A stretch of DNA of 64,000 bases from Vicinamibacterales bacterium (GTDB lineage Bacteria; Acidobacteriota; Vicinamibacteria; Vicinamibacterales; UBA8438). Under the pieces are notes generated by a model. The model had not been told where the DNA came from. It did not search any database and saw only the letters and a program-made list of their open reading frames with translations. Positions within the stretch are counted from its first letter, which is position 1. Every line of letters starts with the position of its first letter. The translations under genes were made by a program, and so were the position numbers. The stretch spans positions 1,391,672 to 1,455,671 of the forward strand of contig OZ220718.1 of the NCBI GenBank assembly GCA_965116765.1, read 5' to 3'. Positions 25,759 through 30,505 of this stretch are shown here, in pieces.

Positions 25759-26043
25759 CTATGGCCGCAGCTCTCCCGCACTCCATGTCTCCGCGGTTTG
25801 GGCGGCATGGGCTTGGGGCCGCTCCGCCAAAGCGGGACGTGGCGGGGGTGCGCTGCCGGACGGCCCGTCGAACGCGCCGTCTTCCGGGCCGTCGGACCCG
25901 GCAGGCTGGGCCGCCTGTGCATCGCCCATCGCCTCGTCGACTGCCGGCTTCGCGCCGTCGTTGTCGTGGTCGTGCTCAAGCGGCATGGCTAGGTCCATTC
26001 CTCGCAGGTCAACACCATTCCCGACGACCCCGACGACCCTCAC
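25759..26043 (-). CDS. small acidic low-complexity ORF possibly coupled to the upstream gene
   Basis: GTG at 26043 overlaps the stop of 26040..27026 (GTGA). The product is Asp/Glu/Ala/Pro-rich with no recognisable domain. Confidence 0.25.
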   Translation of the reverse strand: MRVVGVVGNGVDLRGMDLAMPLEHDHDNDGAKPAVDEAMGDAQAAQPAGSDGPEDGAFDGPSGSAPPPRPALAERPQAHAAQTAETWSAGELRP

Positions 26044-27026
26044 CGGGTCGGCGGCGACGAGTCTCGACCGCCAGGACGAGGACCGGCCGTTCCGCGCGCG
26101 GTCACCGTGACCTCACCGGCCGGGTCGAAGAACGGATCGGCGCAGCCGAACCCGTCCCGAATGCGCGTCCATTCCTGGTCGCCAAGCAGGCCGACGGGCT
26201 GCGTCACGCCGTGCTCTTCGTCCAGTCCCTTGTCCAGCCTGTAGCCGCCACGATCGGTCAGGACGTACCGTGCATGGAAATCGTGCGGGCCGGCGGCACG
26301 AATGCGCCAGCGACAGACCCGGACCGACGTGACAGGTGGAGGCAGCATTGCCGGAATCCACCTCCGGCACGCCCGTTCGAATTCGCCCCGGCTCGGCTTG
26401 TGGTCCGCATCCAGGGTGTGGATCTCCACCCGGGGGCTGTCGTACGCGTCCGCAGCCAACGCGATGCACGCGCACACTACGGGACGCCATTTGTGCTTCG
26501 ACGGGTCGAAGTGCGGATCGATCAGCAACAGCTCGCGGCTGTTGCGTACGAGCCTCCCGATGTGGTCCGCCAGAGCGTCCGGTTCCCGCAGCACCGGGAC
26601 CTCCCTGGGAACGACCAGCTTCGGATGCGACTCTTCGACGTCGTCATCGAAGACCACGTCGGGGTGATTCTCGGGATTGCGCGTCGCCAGGACCGCATGC
26701 AATGTCCGCTCGACGGCCTGTCGCGCGACCGTGTTCCGGATCCAGCGCTCCTCGGCCGGTTCAACCGTTTCATCGTAGCCGTCCGGCTCGCCCCACCGGA
26801 CCATCTTCCCCTTCGACTGGTTCAGCTTCGCCAGAACCCTCTGTCGATCTCGGTCACCGAGCTCGGTGCTCTCTTGGCAGGCAGCCCGAACCAGCTTCAT
26901 CCAGCGTTTTCTGCTCGGGTACGCGGCAATCGCCCGGCCATGCTGGAACCCCATCAGGTCGAGAATCCGCGCGCAGTTGCGCCAGGAGGCAAGCGCAGCG
27001 GGCTCTATGGCGTACGCGTACAGCAT
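26040..27026 (-). CDS. uncharacterised protein with a PLD-fold / MIT_C-like C-terminal signature
   Basis: Intact 328-aa ORF. The ATG at 27026 overlaps the ATPase stop (ATGA). LLLIDPHFDP ... FHARYVLTDRGGYRLDKGLDE parallels the (I/V)xDPY ... HDRxI...G..I..GRGLD pattern of MIT_C/PLD-like modules. This assignment comes from motif memory only. Confidence 0.6.
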   Translation of the reverse strand: MLYAYAIEPAALASWRNCARILDLMGFQHGRAIAAYPSRKRWMKLVRAACQESTELGDRDRQRVLAKLNQSKGKMVRWGEPDGYDETVEPAEERWIRNTVARQAVERTLHAVLATRNPENHPDVVFDDDVEESHPKLVVPREVPVLREPDALADHIGRLVRNSRELLLIDPHFDPSKHKWRPVVCACIALAADAYDSPRVEIHTLDADHKPSRGEFERACRRWIPAMLPPPVTSVRVCRWRIRAAGPHDFHARYVLTDRGGYRLDKGLDEEHGVTQPVGLLGDQEWTRIRDGFGCADPFFDPAGEVTVTARGTAGPRPGGRDSSPPTR

Positions 27027-28837
27027 CAGAACAGCTCGTCGTTGCGCTCATCAAAAAAGCCCTGCGGCCAGCGGTCGATGAACTCGCCGGTCTCGTCGAT
27101 CCGCAGCCGCGTCGCCCTGACCTCCCCGTCGATCTGCTCGACGTAGACCACGGAGACCTGGTCCGGCTTCAGGGCCGGCTTCCCCTCCGGCAGCTCGTTG
27201 CCGCCGGTCTCCTCGATGCGGCGCAGCAGGCGCAGCATCAGGTGCTCGCTGTGGGTCTCGATCAGGAACACCCCGCCGTCGGCGGCCTGCTCGGCGAAGA
27301 GATCTCCGAGCTCCACCTGCAGCCGGGGATGGACGTGCAGCTCCGGTTGCTCGATGGCGGTAATCGCCGGGCGGTCCGGATCGAGGGCGGCGACCACTAC
27401 CGGGAGTATCTGCGAGATGCCCGTACCGATGTCGGACGTTCGCACCTGCAGACCCCTGTCCCCGGTGGCAACGAGCTGGATCTCCCTGCGGACTCGCCCT
27501 TCCGCGATCCCGTGAGCCAAGGCGTCGATCTTCTGCGGCGGCGCCTCCCTCAAGGCGTCAGCCGGGGGATTTGGCCCCGGACGCATTCGCCTCCTTCGCC
27601 TGGATCGCCGGCCGATCCTCGCCCAGAACTCCCTTGTTCAGCACGTCCACCAACGGCGTGTTCGCGGGAAGCTCGACGACGGTGCGCACGCGCAGCTCGT
27701 AACCCGTGTCCAGCCGGTCCTCTCGCGACAGCCAGTCGCTCACCCTTGGAATGACCATGGCCCGATTGCGCTCTCGGGGATTGCGGAAACCGTGCGCGAT
27801 TCGGCGCAAGGTGACCTGGGCACGGCGGTTCAGGACGTCCCAGGCCGCGGTTCCGTCGCCCAACGGCCGGGAACGGACCGATCCGGCTGACGACGGCATG
27901 CGCGGATGCAGATCCCGCAGGGGGCCGAGATACCGGAACCGGGCCAGTTCGTCACGCAGGAGCATTCCGATGCCGGCGAGCAGCCTCGGTATGTCGAAGC
28001 GTGGAGGTGGTCCAGCGCCTTCGTCCTGGATCCAGAACCTGCTGGTCGAAGGGCGGCACGGCGGATGAAGACCCACGAAGCGGGTTTCCGGGCTCGAGAA
28101 GCACCGCCATCGGTCGGAGTCCGGGGGCATACCTCCAAGCACCTGAGTCCTCGCGCACTTGTCCGACGTACCGTGACGAGGTGTCGCTCGCCTCTCGATC
28201 GACGCCGTATTCCAGCAGCGGATGCGACACGTTGGCCATCAGCCGTCGCCGTTCTGCCCGACGGCCGGGACCTGGATACGACCGAGGGTCTGCCCGTCGA
28301 CACCGACTTGGTAGTCGCTGACAATCGGCTTGTCCAGTTCCGCCTTCCACGTGACTCTCAACTCCAGCCAGCCCGTTTCCGCCTCCTCCAGGGAGAGCGA
28401 CCTCATAGAACGCCGCAGAGGACGCAGCCAATCCGCATGGCCTCGTGCGTCCCCCCAAGCTCGGGCAGGACGAGATTCCGCAGATTCAACTCGAAGCGAA
28501 GCCGCACGGAGCGCTTCAGGTCATGCCCGTGGACGAAGCGCCGGAACCCGCCCAGGTCGATCTGGTCGCCGCCGAGATCGGTCTTGTGCGCATCGACGTT
28601 GCGGTGGCTCAGGATCTCGTGCGCGTAGCAGAGCGCGTGCAGCATCGTGCTCTTGCCGGCGCTGTTGCGGCCGAACAGGAGGGTGATGGGCCGCAGGTCG
28701 ATCCGCACCGGCCGGCCGATTCCCTTGAAGTTCTCGATCTCGATCGCAGTGATCAGCGGCTGACCCTGATGATTCGTCGACCTGTCGCCCGCCGGAAGCG
28801 GTTCATCCGTGTCGTCGTCGCGGTGGTCGCAGTTCAT
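27026..28837 (-). pseudogene. DUF3696-type ABC/OLD-like AAA ATPase, at least 4 frameshifts as assembled
   Basis: Walker A: ITLLFGRNSAGKST (ORF 28403..28837). Middle: ARFRYLGPLRD (ORF 27558..28142). C-terminus: SDIGTGISQILPVVVAAL...AITAIEQPELHVHPRLQVELGDLF...FLIETHSEHLMLRLLRRI...WPQGFFDE (ORF 27026..27586). Frame changes lie near 28440, 28250, 28010 and 27575. Confidence 0.75.
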
Positions 28838-28879
28838 GCGGCATGGTTACGTCCATTCTCTGCAAGTCAACCGTCCTGC

Positions 28880-30505
28880 TCAGAGAGCAATACTCATGCC
28901 ATCCCGACGCGGGATTCCATCACTGCCGTCCCAATCCGGGCGCGACACCCCGTAGCGCTGCATCCAGTTGGTGAACGTCTGGTAGCTCGGCAGCCCGATC
29001 AGCTCCGCCGCTCGCGTCTTGTTGCCGCCCGCCTCGTCGAGGGCGCGGCCCAGGTAGTGCCGGGCAACGCCGCCATCAGCTCCGGCAGCCGCAGCCCGTC
29101 GCCCAGCGGCCGACCCAGCAGATCGGCGGGCGGGTCGGTCACCGTTCGGAGCAACTCTCCTGCACGTCCTCGGCGCCGATGTCGGCGTGCGGCGTCCAGA
29201 GCACGAGCCGGTCCATCGTCGCCTGCAGCTCCCGGACGTTGCCGGGCCACGAGTGCGCCAACAGAAGGTTCCTTGCCTTCGGAGAAAGGGCCTTCTGTTC
29301 GACGCCGGGCTGGTCGGCGAACTTGCGGTTCGCGGCGGCGAGGAAGTGGTCGATGAGGGGTGTCAGGTCGCCGGGCGTTCGCGGAGCGGCGGCAGCCGGA
29401 TGACGGCGGTCGCCAGCCGGTAGTAGAGGTCTTCGCGGAACCGGCCGGCCGCCACCTCGCCGCGAGGTCGCGGTTCGTCGCCGCGATCACCCGCACGTCG
29501 ACGGGGACGGCGCGGTCGGCGCCGAGGCGCCGGACGGTCCTCTCCTGCAGCGTCCGCAGCAGCTTGACCTGGGCGTCGAGGGGCAGACTCGCCGATCTCG
29601 TCGAGAAACAGCGTGCCGCCGTCGGCCGCCTCGAAGTGGCCGGCGCGGGCGCGGACCGCGCCGGAGAACGCGCCCCGCTCGTGGCCGAAGAGCAGCGACT
29701 CGACGAGGCCCTCGGGCAGGGCGCCGCAGTTGACGTCCTCGAATGGGCCCGTGGGCGCGGCGGCTCTCGGCGTGAATCGCCCGGGCGAACAGCTCCTTGC
29801 CGTGCCGGACGCGCCCTCGATCAGAACCGTGACATCGTGCGGGGCGACCCGCCGGGCGCGGGCTCTTCGCCCGCTCCATCAGGCGGGCTGCGGCCGATGA
29901 TCCGGTCGAACGCGGGAGACGCGGGGGGCAGCCCGGCCGTCAGCCGTTCGATCTTCTCATCGGCGCGGCGCAGCAACGCCGGCACGTACTCGGCGGCGAT
30001 GTCGAAGGGCACCGAGACCGTTCGGACGCCGGTCTGCGCGTGCGACTGAATCAGCTCCGCGGGGTAGCGGGTCTTGGCGAGCAGCACCCACACCGCCTGC
30101 ATGGCGGGCGTGCCGGGGCTGACGTGGACGGTCAGGTCGGCGCCGGCCCCGAACGTCTCGCGGGCGAAGTCGAACGCCCGAGCACCGCCGCCGCATGGAT
30201 CCGGCCGGAGATGCGGAAGGAGCGCCCGCCCCGGCCGTAGTCGGTCGGATCGGTCAGCGCGCTCGGCTCCCCGGAGATGGACGAGAGGTCGCCGCGCAGC
30301 CCGCCCCGGACCAGCCAATCGATGAACGTCCGGTTCTGCTCGGCCGGATAGTTGGACAGGAGGACCATGCGCGTCGAACGGCCGAGCCGCGCGACGACGC
30401 TCCCGATCGGGACCGACCGCCCGGCCGCCGAGCGAACGCGCCGGCACAGTCGAGATCGGTCTGGCCGATCCAAGCGAGGAGCACGACGGGCACCGCGATC
30501 ATCAT
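28880..30505 (-). pseudogene. RtcR-like CARF-domain sigma-54-dependent transcriptional activator, about 11 frameshifts as assembled
   Basis: Pieced from three frames. The N-terminal CARF-like part reads VVLLAWIGQTDL...GPIGSVVARLGRSTRMVLLSNYPAEQNRTFIDWL...TDPTDY...[31 protein letters not shown]. The AAA+ core reads [73 protein letters not shown]. The C-terminal HTH reads [27 protein letters not shown]. Confidence 0.75.
28886..28901 (-). promoter_or_regulatory. sigma-54 (-24/-12) promoter candidate upstream of the ATPase gene
   Basis: The minus strand reads TGGCATGAGTATTGCT, against the consensus TGGCACG-N4-TTGCW. The GG and GC dinucleotides have correct spacing. The site is about 50 nt upstream of the ATG at 28837 and lies inside the last codons of the sigma-54 activator gene. 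Confidence 0.6.

Follow-up and report, generated by a model that had tools for sequence, protein, structure and literature searches.

What does an RtcR-like transcriptional activator control when the genes behind it encode an ABC ATPase and a protein of 328 amino acids (aa) instead of RtcA and RtcB? This question is raised by a locus on the minus strand (30505 to 25759) of the stretch analysed here, a 64-kb piece of DNA from a soil bacterium of the Vicinamibacterales with a G+C content of about 71%, which we call the window. The initial annotation of this DNA had read the locus as an undescribed stress- or infection-triggered module, in which an RtcR-type sensor had been rewired to an ATPase and a PLD-like effector. 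According to our analysis it probably encodes an inducible two-gene defence module directed against nucleic acids, which is related to the genes NsnB and NsnC of the Menshen system, is devoid of NsnA and stands under a CARF/sigma-54 switch of the RtcR_PspF2 type. It is best described as an ATPase-PLD pair of the NsnB/NsnC type that lacks NsnA and is controlled by RtcR_PspF2 (CARF/sigma-54).

In the raw sequence this part of the minus strand contains fragments of a sigma-54 activator gene, fragments of an ABC ATPase gene, an intact open reading frame (ORF) for the 328-aa protein and another ORF of 94 aa. The five elements that had been listed for the locus, including a promoter between activator and ATPase, were all found at their positions. 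The frames of the two interrupted genes were restored by our own frameshift-aware dynamic-programming alignment to the allele of a 9.4-kb metagenomic contig (L001; related loci are numbered in the same way), which encodes exactly the same 328-aa protein and has intact neighbours, an activator of 506 aa and an ATPase of 600 aa. This frame-corrected translation, which the initial annotation had proposed as a check, was obtained with 18 frame changes for the activator (30493..28923) and 12 for the ATPase (28844..27029), is free of stop codons over 1,100 codons and lets the activator match the RtcR_PspF2 model. For the surroundings 33 ORFs of the window were scanned with Pfam; statements below on families of the window refer to the 25 listed out of 29 matched families.

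The activator gene (28920..30505, minus strand, ATG at 30505, about 18 frameshifts) encodes an enhancer-binding protein of the RtcR_PspF2 type with a CARF domain, a sigma-54 AAA+ domain and a Fis-type helix-turn-helix (HTH). After correction it matches the PADLOC model RtcR_PspF2--CARF_AAA_HTH (PDLC01995) with an E-value of 1.4e-174 over residues 4-514 (profile positions 3-479 of 481), and this model outranks the RtcR_PspF1 and RtcR models. Homologues of the activator reach 1e-184 (L003) and 9e-193 (Vibrio plasmid p337) with the same model and cross-match several CARF models, namely CARF4 (9.7e-10), CARF1 (2e-4) and Csx1/Csm6 (1.8e-9, residues 1-149), so that the CARF sensor proposed for the N-terminus is borne out. 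In the intact orthologues of 504-507 aa the Pfam domains Sigma54_activat (E 1e-67), AAA_lid_14 and HTH_8 are found; the Pfam RtcR domain stays below threshold in these orthologues as well as in the window piece (15-19 bits, cutoff 23.1). The raw fragments of the window show a weak Sigma54_activat match and, on the piece which bears a CARF signature stretch of 28 aa (30043..30126, minus strand, read directly from the sequence), the sub-threshold RtcR match. This stretch, which corresponds to IHITTGTHVAQICWFLLAEARYLPARLIQS of E. coli RtcR, is included both in the sub-threshold Pfam match and in the part spanned by the PADLOC CARF models.

By its sequence the activator is RtcR-like with a CARF sensor, but not RtcR, because its top sigma-54 activator family in NCBIfam is the RtcR equivalog NF038308 and yet the score of 346 bits remains below the cutoff of 650. 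Both proteins share the CARF-AAA+-HTH organization, RtcR being the best curated relative of the activator, and in both cases a sigma-54 promoter governs the downstream genes. In contrast to RtcR the activator described here falls below the equivalog cutoff, is represented by the separate RtcR_PspF2 model and adjoins neither rtcA nor rtcB; no RtcA or RtcB family is among the listed families of the window ORFs, and the gene after the promoter is the ABC ATPase.

The promoter TGGCATGAGTATTGCT (28886..28901, minus strand) lies about 19 nucleotides (nt) past the corrected activator stop and 42 nt ahead of the ATPase start codon. In a motif scan it is the single match in 64 kb, with at most one mismatch, to the -24/-12 consensus TGGCAC-N5-TTGCW; as 0.75 matches are expected by chance, this one match alone is not significant. 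It becomes significant because of its position and conservation after the activator, its near-complete absence where the activator is absent and the low background. In most of the non-redundant activator-bearing loci the element TGGCAC-N5-TTGCT (at most two mismatches) directly follows the activator gene, ahead of either the ATPase gene or hsdR, at a background rate of 0.04 per 600 nt. It precedes hsdR in L006, L040, L041 and on Vibrio p337 (TGGCATAACCATTGCT, 22 nt after the activator stop), and some tandem loci possess a second such promoter before their second ATPase gene. Loci headed by a WYL regulator or devoid of a recognisable regulator have none, except for one doubtful match inside the ATPase ORF of L042. 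The promoter of the initial annotation is retained. Weak GG-N10-GC matches at start codons (TGGACGTAACCATGC, TGGACCTAGCCATGC) were considered as second promoters and discarded, being part of a conserved leader and matching in the dinucleotides only. Scanning the locus for sigma-70 promoters and terminators gave matches at chance level only.

The two genes behind this promoter recall two genes of Menshen, a system that was reportedly described as anti-phage by Millman et al. in 2022. In Menshen (Li et al. 2025, PMC12065111) NsnA is a ParB-DUF262 sensor and NsnB an ABC ATPase with a DUF3696 helix, while NsnC carries an N-terminal inactive-PIN (inPIN) domain followed by a variable effector, which in the PB-PLD1 class is MIT_C-like with a D/E and an HDR motif. 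On the basis of AlphaFold3 models of NsnB4-NsnC2 the paired DUF3696 helices were predicted to clamp the PIN-like domain of NsnC, as in Septu, PARIS and Gabija (PMC12065111).

The ATPase gene of the window (27026..28844, minus strand, about 12 frameshifts) starts with a conserved 5' leader, TTGACTTGCAGAGAATGGACGTAACCATGCCGC (28834..28871), which includes a GAGAA/GAGGA ribosome-binding site and the beginning of an MPxEHDHRDDD peptide. As had been recognised in the initial annotation, it encodes an ABC ATPase of the OLD/AAA_15 type with a DUF3696 C-terminus. Pfam finds AAA_15, AAA_21, AAA_23 and DUF3696 (27172..27032; 34.7 bits, cutoff 22) on its fragments, besides weak matches to SMC_N and RecF, and both the Walker A motif GRNSAGKST (28672..28646) and the Walker B motif AITAIEQPE (27367..27341) can be read from the sequence. 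Intact orthologues of 600 aa are present on L001 and L003. In PADLOC the corrected protein matches PDC-M55A (7.8e-46), NsnB (5.8e-42) and HEC-03B (3.5e-28); it also matches, like its homologues, AriA of PARIS (1e-15 to 1e-21) and, more weakly, GajA and PtuA. The NsnB match is made up of two partial stretches, comprising the N-terminal and C-terminal ATPase parts together with the DUF3696 tail, and a long insert occupies the middle of the protein. Because the PDC-M55A match covers only positions 260-405 of 421 and the partner has no PADLOC match (E at most 0.01), the pair is not assigned to PDC-M55.

The stop codon of the ATPase gene overlaps the start of the partner gene by one nucleotide (TGATG), in place of the ATGA overlap given before. 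The partner, a predicted effector, is encoded by an intact ORF (26040..27026, minus strand), whose product is 100% identical to the database protein P0001. It belongs to a large family with 119 close homologues and 2,931 cluster representatives (E at most 1e-3, clusters at 50% identity); almost all of the best 150 representatives are full-length, with about 300 aa. A Pfam scan of 51 homologues gave just weak matches to DUF7931 in five members (best E 0.0017), and DUF7931 may be a related PLD-like or PIN-like domain. No partner homologue was found in the phage genomes searched.

An AlphaFold2 model of the partner, calculated with the alignment of the 51 homologues, has a mean predicted local distance difference test (pLDDT) score of 93.1 and consists of two domains; the N-terminal domain of 135 residues modelled alone reaches 91.9. 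The C-terminal half (about residues 140-310) is a PLD fold in this model. In Foldseek comparisons with the Protein Data Bank (PDB) ranks 1-32 are mostly members of the PLD superfamily (E 2e-5 to 1e-3, alignments of 143-278 columns), with a probability of 1.00 for Streptomyces PLD, PLD3/PLD4 and the nuclease domain of SauUSI and of 0.95-0.98 for the C-terminal domain of TrmBL2; Tdp1 follows at ranks 36-37 (E 2.6e-3 to 3.9e-3). The N-terminal domain (about residues 1-135, 27026..26622) appears PIN-like in the predicted structure, the closest PDB entry being the PIN protein PAE2754 (1v8o/1v8p; probability 0.84-0.94, template modelling score 0.51-0.57; best match with probability 0.94, score 0.56 and an E-value of only 0.07), followed by the PIN-like domain of Chp1 and by Nmd4.

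Two motifs of the C-terminal domain stand out in the sequence and in the alignment, IDPHF (about 26519..26505) and H251-A-R-Y-V-L-T-D258 (26276..26253). The DPHF and HARYVLTDRGGYRLDKGLD motifs are invariant or near-invariant columns among the 51 homologues: H251 and R253 never vary, and D or E occupies position 258, so that the spacing is that of HxK(x)4D with R for K. From these motifs the protein had been taken as PLD/MIT_C-like. The PLD part of this claim is supported by the fold, whereas the MIT_C part goes back to motif resemblance. We compared the partner with human MITD1 (sequence verified as 2YMB); the E-value in hhalign was 0.38, and neither the partner nor its 51 homologues have a significant MIT_C or PLDc match in Pfam. 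Membership in MIT_C (PF16565) is therefore not supported, and the protein is filed under the PLD superfamily only. With the MIT_C domain of MITD1 and with single-HKD PLD proteins such as Nuc, Zucchini, BfiI and SauUSI it has the PLD fold in common, together with a motif pattern in which (D/E)P(H/Y) follows an early strand and H-x-R ... G-x-GLD comes in the late part of the domain. It differs from MITD1 by having no MIT domain and by the fusion of its C-terminal domain to a PIN-like domain.

A genome scan with one genome per species yielded 48 loci from more than 10 phyla, which were annotated by jackhmmer on the six-frame ORFs of all loci. As the initial annotation had expected, ATPase and partner go together: in every locus with room for both the ATPase gene lies directly upstream of the partner gene, usually with a 1-nt overlap. 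The home clade of the pair are the Vicinamibacterales (Acidobacteriota). Relatives with 26-36% identity occur in Desulfuromonadales, Smithella, Geobacter, Acidisarcina, Sulfitobacter and Rhizobium, and further in Gamma- and Alphaproteobacteria, Myxococcota, Planctomycetota, Chitinophaga, Verrucomicrobiota and Latescibacterota. The distribution is patchy, some copies are carried by plasmids, and presence and absence vary at the strain level.

The coupling of the pair to the CARF/sigma-54 activator, which had also been postulated, recurs across several phyla but is not obligatory. Fifteen of the 16 Vicinamibacterales-type loci have the activator (truncated in one, split in another), as do eight of about 17 distant loci with enough upstream sequence; elsewhere a WYL regulator or no recognisable regulator is found. 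In L006/7, L033, L040 and L041 the gene order is activator-hsdR-hsdM-hsdS-ATPase-partner, and the same order occurs on plasmids of Vibrio coralliilyticus RE22 (p337) and Azotobacter chroococcum NCIMB 8003. Altogether, Type I restriction-modification (R-M) operons have the pair at their 3' end in L006/7, L029, L031-33, L036, L039-41 and on the Vibrio, Azotobacter and Methylocella plasmids. In Acidisarcina, Sulfitobacter, a gammaproteobacterium and the Methylocella plasmid a WYL regulator takes the place of the activator directly upstream of hsdRMS-ATPase-partner (L029 1309-2196, L031 1215-2072, L032 1314-2171 and, for the Methylocella plasmid, L057 343-1218). The verrucomicrobial loci have neither the activator nor a WYL regulator. 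Other neighbours in the relatives are Druantia-III-like genes, Gabija, SIR2, SIR2-DUF87, McrBC-like genes, a PIN-domain protein and a T5orf172-domain protein.

Compared with Menshen, the ATPase is an ABC/AAA_15-type protein with C-terminal DUF3696 and a PADLOC match to NsnB, as is expected of an NsnB, and the partner may share the plan of NsnC, a PIN-like N-terminal domain followed by an effector, the PIN match being weak (E 0.07). Its PLD-fold effector with the HxR/HDR motif resembles the PB-PLD1 class by description, and the partner of the second pair in L003 reads FHDRY; a frequent linkage to Type I R-M is common to both systems. Unlike in Menshen the pair has no adjacent NsnA, the gene which defines Menshen loci. 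In addition, the ATPase exceeds the NsnB model of 345 positions by about 250 aa and has a large middle insert, the partner has no PADLOC match, and the module is headed by a CARF/sigma-54 or WYL regulator and often tandemly duplicated. Since the architecture of NsnB/NsnC with NsnA missing can be recognised (PMC12065111), the earlier view that the pair is undescribed and cannot be placed is not supported in that form. The published Menshen census was anchored on DUF262 genes (PMC12065111), and hence NsnA-less pairs would not have been collected by it.

The regulatory half has a published relative too. Bell et al. 2024 (PMC11090510) described RtcR homologues at the 5' end of co-directional defence arrays (HsdR/M/S, Druantia III), which are followed by CoCoNuTs; as RtcR-led defence operons including Type I R-M are thus already in the literature, the rewiring of an RtcR-type sensor is not new as such. 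The same arrangement is seen here in L029, L040 and on Vibrio p337; in contrast to these superoperons the loci that we examined yielded no CoCoNuT genes. The ATPase-PLD pair is not mentioned as cargo in PMC11090510, whose text contains neither "ABC ATPase" nor "AAA_15". Both halves of the idea therefore have published relatives; their combination is widespread and unnamed.

With PARIS, Septu and Gabija the pair shares an ATPase of the OLD/AAA_15-AAA_21 family and the translational coupling to a small nuclease-like partner, and a common logic would be expected, in which an ATPase oligomer sequesters a nuclease and then releases or activates it (PMC12065111). The effector is PIN-like plus PLD fold here and not Toprim (AriB, C-terminus of GajA) or HNH (PtuB), the ATPase has a DUF3696 tail, and transcription is dedicated to sigma-54/CARF control. 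As to the alternative regulators in the relatives, they stand in the same co-directional position before hsdRMS-ATPase-partner, with the difference that WYL loci have no sigma-54 promoter. WYL regulators of the BrxR/CapW type belong to an unrelated family, depend on sigma-70 and are typically repressors. The common position of WYL and CARF regulators points to the same role, a ligand-sensing switch on a defence operon; WYL-domain regulators of defence were treated by Makarova et al. 2014 (PMC4012209).

For the mechanism we start from the domain identities, the gene order, the conserved promoter linked to the activator and the translational coupling of ATPase and partner, all of which are observed. 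The CARF domain would hold the AAA+ domain inactive until a signal of infection or damage is bound. The activated protein would then remodel the sigma-54 RNA polymerase at the -24/-12 promoter behind its own gene and allow transcription of ATPase and partner; in other phyla the same switch would drive hsdR-hsdM-hsdS-ATPase-partner. Once made, an oligomer of the ABC ATPase may hold the partner, the C-terminal DUF3696 helices clamping its PIN-like N-terminal domain, a step that we infer from the NsnB4-NsnC2 AlphaFold3 models and from the structures of Septu, PARIS and Gabija (PMC12065111). Upon a trigger, binding or hydrolysis of ATP would release or activate the partner. PLD-family nucleases with a single HKD motif dimerise to form their active site. 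By analogy the PLD domain of the partner, with its single copy of HxR(x)4D, probably dimerises as well, and the active protein would cut nucleic acid and thereby stop phage replication or the host cell.

Contacts between ATPase and partner could also be reflected in the tandem paralogous pairs of some relatives. In these pairs the ATPase core is 74-80% identical, the DUF3696 tail 44% and the partner 26%, and a conserved core with diverged tail and partner fits co-evolving contacts. At the sequence level the tail and the insert of the ATPase have co-diversified with the partner in the tandem paralogues.

Several points count against the defence module under CARF/sigma-54 control. The function of the pair family is a prediction from sequence and models, and the ligand by which the CARF domain would switch on transcription is putative. 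About half of the distant loci lack the activator, which makes the switch an accessory and not a defining part. The Sigma54 (rpoN) family is not among the listed families of the window ORFs, a survey that covers 64 kb of the genome. In this genome the module does not lie in a defence island, as the remaining genes of the window are housekeeping genes according to the Pfam survey. The partner matches nothing in sequence searches of Pfam, NCBIfam, PADLOC (NsnC included) and the PDB, the best Foldseek E-value of its PIN assignment (0.07) is statistically weak, hhalign aligned it with MITD1 only in the HxR...GLD stretch (DFHARYVLTDRG-GYRLDKGLD), and MITD1 structures are not among its top 50 Foldseek matches. 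Finally, the frameshifts sit in exactly the activator and the ATPase, the rest of the window being clean, which would also fit a real inactivation.

This last point leads to the first of the alternatives, namely that the locus is dead in this genome: the frameshifts would be real, a second ATPase-partner pair has been deleted, and the 328-aa ORF would survive by chance in a decaying relic. We regard this as unlikely, although some observations speak for it. In a frame plot of the G+C content at third codon positions (GC3) the coding phase flips every 150-750 nt only in 27000-30400, whereas most other genes of the window read steadily for kilobases. The deletion of the second pair is genuine and is also found on L001 and L002, and decay of the locus is known from relatives with a truncated activator (L004/L013), insertion sequence (IS) insertions (L005) or a split activator (L022). 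In L004/L013 the activator was called at 255 aa only, without the CARF domain; in L005 (9653-15907) IS transposase genes (DDE_Tnp_1, ISAZ013, Transposase_mut) lie inside the second ATPase gene of a strain variant; and in L022 (569-4820) the CARF part and the AAA+ part of the activator are about 2.6 kb apart.

Against a dead locus stands the near-identical contig L001, which carries both genes intact, as well as the lack of stop codons in the corrected frames. Window and L001, which are otherwise assemblies of one strain, show no mismatch in 25250-27000 (about 2 kb, on the partner side) and one in 30750-31500 (about 0.75 kb, on the PPK2 side); substitutions (about 4%) and many indels are confined to about 27500-30700, that is to the activator and most of the ATPase. 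The codon differences are 37 synonymous and 13 non-synonymous in the activator (74% synonymous), 20 and 29 in the ATPase and none in the partner. The mostly synonymous substitutions of the activator are those of a selected allele, and 30 indels beside so few random substitutions would be an unnatural pattern for decay; the indels rather resemble consensus noise at a strain-variable site. Because L001 is intact, the corrected frames are stop-free and the activator substitutions are mostly synonymous, the roughly 30 indels are, as judged from the alignments, most likely a consensus artefact at a strain-variable locus and not real decay. The window most likely holds a genuinely different allele of this locus, with consensus errors where the strains differ. 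The pattern also looks as if recombination had replaced an allele at a defence locus and consensus errors had come on top. In practice, models of these families are better seeded from intact gene versions than from the frameshifted copies of this assembly.

The second alternative concerns the association with Type I R-M. The pair could stand guard as a backup for Type I restriction, comparable to PARIS, PrrC and RloC. Its ATPase would respond to phage anti-restriction proteins or to HsdRMS that is stalled or inhibited, and would set the PLD nuclease free; the resulting RNA or DNA damage products would be sensed by the CARF activator, which would thus complete a feedback loop. The stand-alone Vicinamibacterales form would then be derived by loss of R-M. 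The pair ends hsdR-hsdM-hsdS operons, with hsdS abutting the ATPase gene, in at least 10 loci, which come from Alpha- and Gammaproteobacteria, Myxococcota, Planctomycetota, Acidobacteriota and one contig with the label Chloroflexi, and the match of the ATPase to AriA of PARIS points in the same direction. The nucleases PrrC and RloC are encoded inside Type I R-M loci, and the products of PrrC carry 2',3'-cyclic phosphate ends. Such ends are reported as the ligand class of the CARF domain of RtcR (PMC7790460), which would suit the proposed loop. On the other side no hsd genes are found next to the pair in the window or in any Vicinamibacterales locus, nor in the Pfam survey of the window ORFs, and the loci of Verrucomicrobia, Deinococcus and delta-proteobacteria likewise have no adjacent hsdRMS. 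We therefore give a function as restriction guard only a small chance.

Still less probable is an operon for stress response or nucleic-acid repair comparable to rtcBA, which the RtcR-like sensor would switch on upon damage to RNA or DNA and where the PLD protein would trim damaged 3' or 5' ends like Tdp1 or PLD3/4 and the ATPase would act like RecF, RecN or SbcC. This idea can draw on RtcR as the nearest curated relative of the activator (346 bits in NCBIfam), on Tdp1 and PLD3/PLD4 among the Foldseek matches of the partner, on the weak SMC_N and RecF matches of the ATPase and on the housekeeping neighbours in this genome. It is countered by the consistent embedding of the pair in R-M operons and defence islands and by the WYL regulator of defence type that can stand in for the activator. 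The ATPase is closest to the defence ATPases NsnB, PDC-M55A, HEC-03B and AriA, and patchy distribution, plasmids, atypical G+C content, diversifying tandem paralogues and strain-level variation are typical of defence genes and not of repair genes. A three-gene Menshen system of the ordinary type, with an NsnA (ParB/DUF262) that is located elsewhere or was missed, would explain the NsnB match of 5.8e-42 and the two-domain NsnC plan with a PLD effector, but is very improbable, as there is no gene and hence no room for NsnA between activator (or hsdS) and ATPase in the window and most relatives, no ParB/DUF262 gene among the 30 neighbour ORFs tested at 20 positions, the annotated plasmid loci or the listed families of the window, and an NsnB match only in the conserved N- and C-terminal parts of a protein that is about 250 aa longer.

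Going beyond the inducible NsnB/NsnC-related module, the pair could be a distinct, very widespread and unnamed two-gene defence system without a dedicated DNA sensor, which would be licensed at the level of transcription through RNA-damage or nucleotide signals read by CARF, and the same switch would turn on Type I R-M. We put this forward tentatively, as a possibility on which we would not yet rely. If true, it would mean CRISPR-independent CARF signalling wired to sigma-54 in innate immunity, with concrete cases in which CARF controls immunity by transcription and not by allosteric nuclease activation, and it would put Type I R-M, usually regarded as constitutive, behind a sigma-54 promoter. 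The transducer-effector core of NsnB/NsnC would then be a free-standing cassette that can be attached to NsnA, Type I R-M, CARF/sigma-54 or WYL, and PIN-PLD proteins of about 300 aa together with DUF3696 ATPases, now annotated as "hypothetical", would be added to the anti-phage catalogue. The interest lies in the large unnamed family, in CARF/sigma-54 and WYL regulators in the same position, and in the cultured strains: Vibrio coralliilyticus RE22 with p337 and Azotobacter chroococcum NCIMB 8003 with pAcX50d are cultured carriers in which infection-induced restriction could be tested.

Downstream of the partner an acidic mini-ORF had been proposed as a further component of the operon. An ORF of 94 aa indeed exists at 26043..25759; it was rejected as a fourth component since its homologue in relatives is the beginning of their second ATPase gene. 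Two tandem ATPase-partner pairs lie between PPK2 and Nramp in L003, L004, L008, L009 and others. In the window a 38-nt direct repeat connects 28871..28834, upstream of and including the ATPase start, with 26013..25976 after the partner (82% identity), and in blastn 26013..25838 corresponds to L004 9050-9228, the start of the second ATPase gene of L004 (75% identity, E 8e-31). The remnant (25759..26013, minus strand) thus comprises the duplicated leader and the first 75 or so codons for an N-terminal extension of the second ATPase, with an ATG at 25986 (MPLEHDHDNDG...). The GTG start at 26043 and the GTGA coupling of the first reading are probably fortuitous. By sequence comparison the mini-ORF is the 5' stump of a second ATPase gene, whose pair is deleted in this strain.

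The leader and the MPxEHDHRDDD peptide are common to the first and second ATPase genes in L003, L004 and L009. A leader of about 33 nt, TTGACyTGCrAGrAATGGAC..CCATGCyGC, together with an acidic and His-rich N-terminal peptide is kept before both paralogous ATPases (L003 9140; L004 5939 and 9051; L009 8143), although the partners are only 26% identical; a role as a signal in translation or as a site of regulation might explain this, as might gene conversion.

The module is flanked by PPK2 (31702..30689) and Nramp (25386..24116), both on the minus strand. The genes for ATPase and partner have a G+C content of 66.5% and a GC3 of 0.79, compared with a GC3 of 0.98 for PPK2 and 0.92 for Nramp; this contrast suggests that the pair may have been acquired horizontally into housekeeping surroundings. 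The Nramp gene is found in two overlapping ORFs (25386..25111 and 25321..24116) and has a single 1-nt deletion in comparison to L001 at about 25139, thus at least one frameshift lies outside the module. An Rfam scan of the window gave zero matches and hence no group II intron RNA; one window ORF matches the group II intron maturase domain GIIM (E 1.1e-16). Between module and Nramp lies a small ORF on the plus strand (25459-25737) for 92 aa, annotated with 77 aa on L001. Its product has a CCG motif and an acidic tail, and its DNA sequence is conserved in L003, L009 and L010. The minus-strand ORFs 21621-23333, 22853-23788 and 32050-33231 encode paralogous secreted-looking proteins with motifs including RTPWGDPDLQGMWD and RTGWGAPDLQGVWDYRT. 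Some of these ORFs overlap mutually, so that not all of them can be real; genes for paralogous secreted-looking proteins flank the module in relatives, too.

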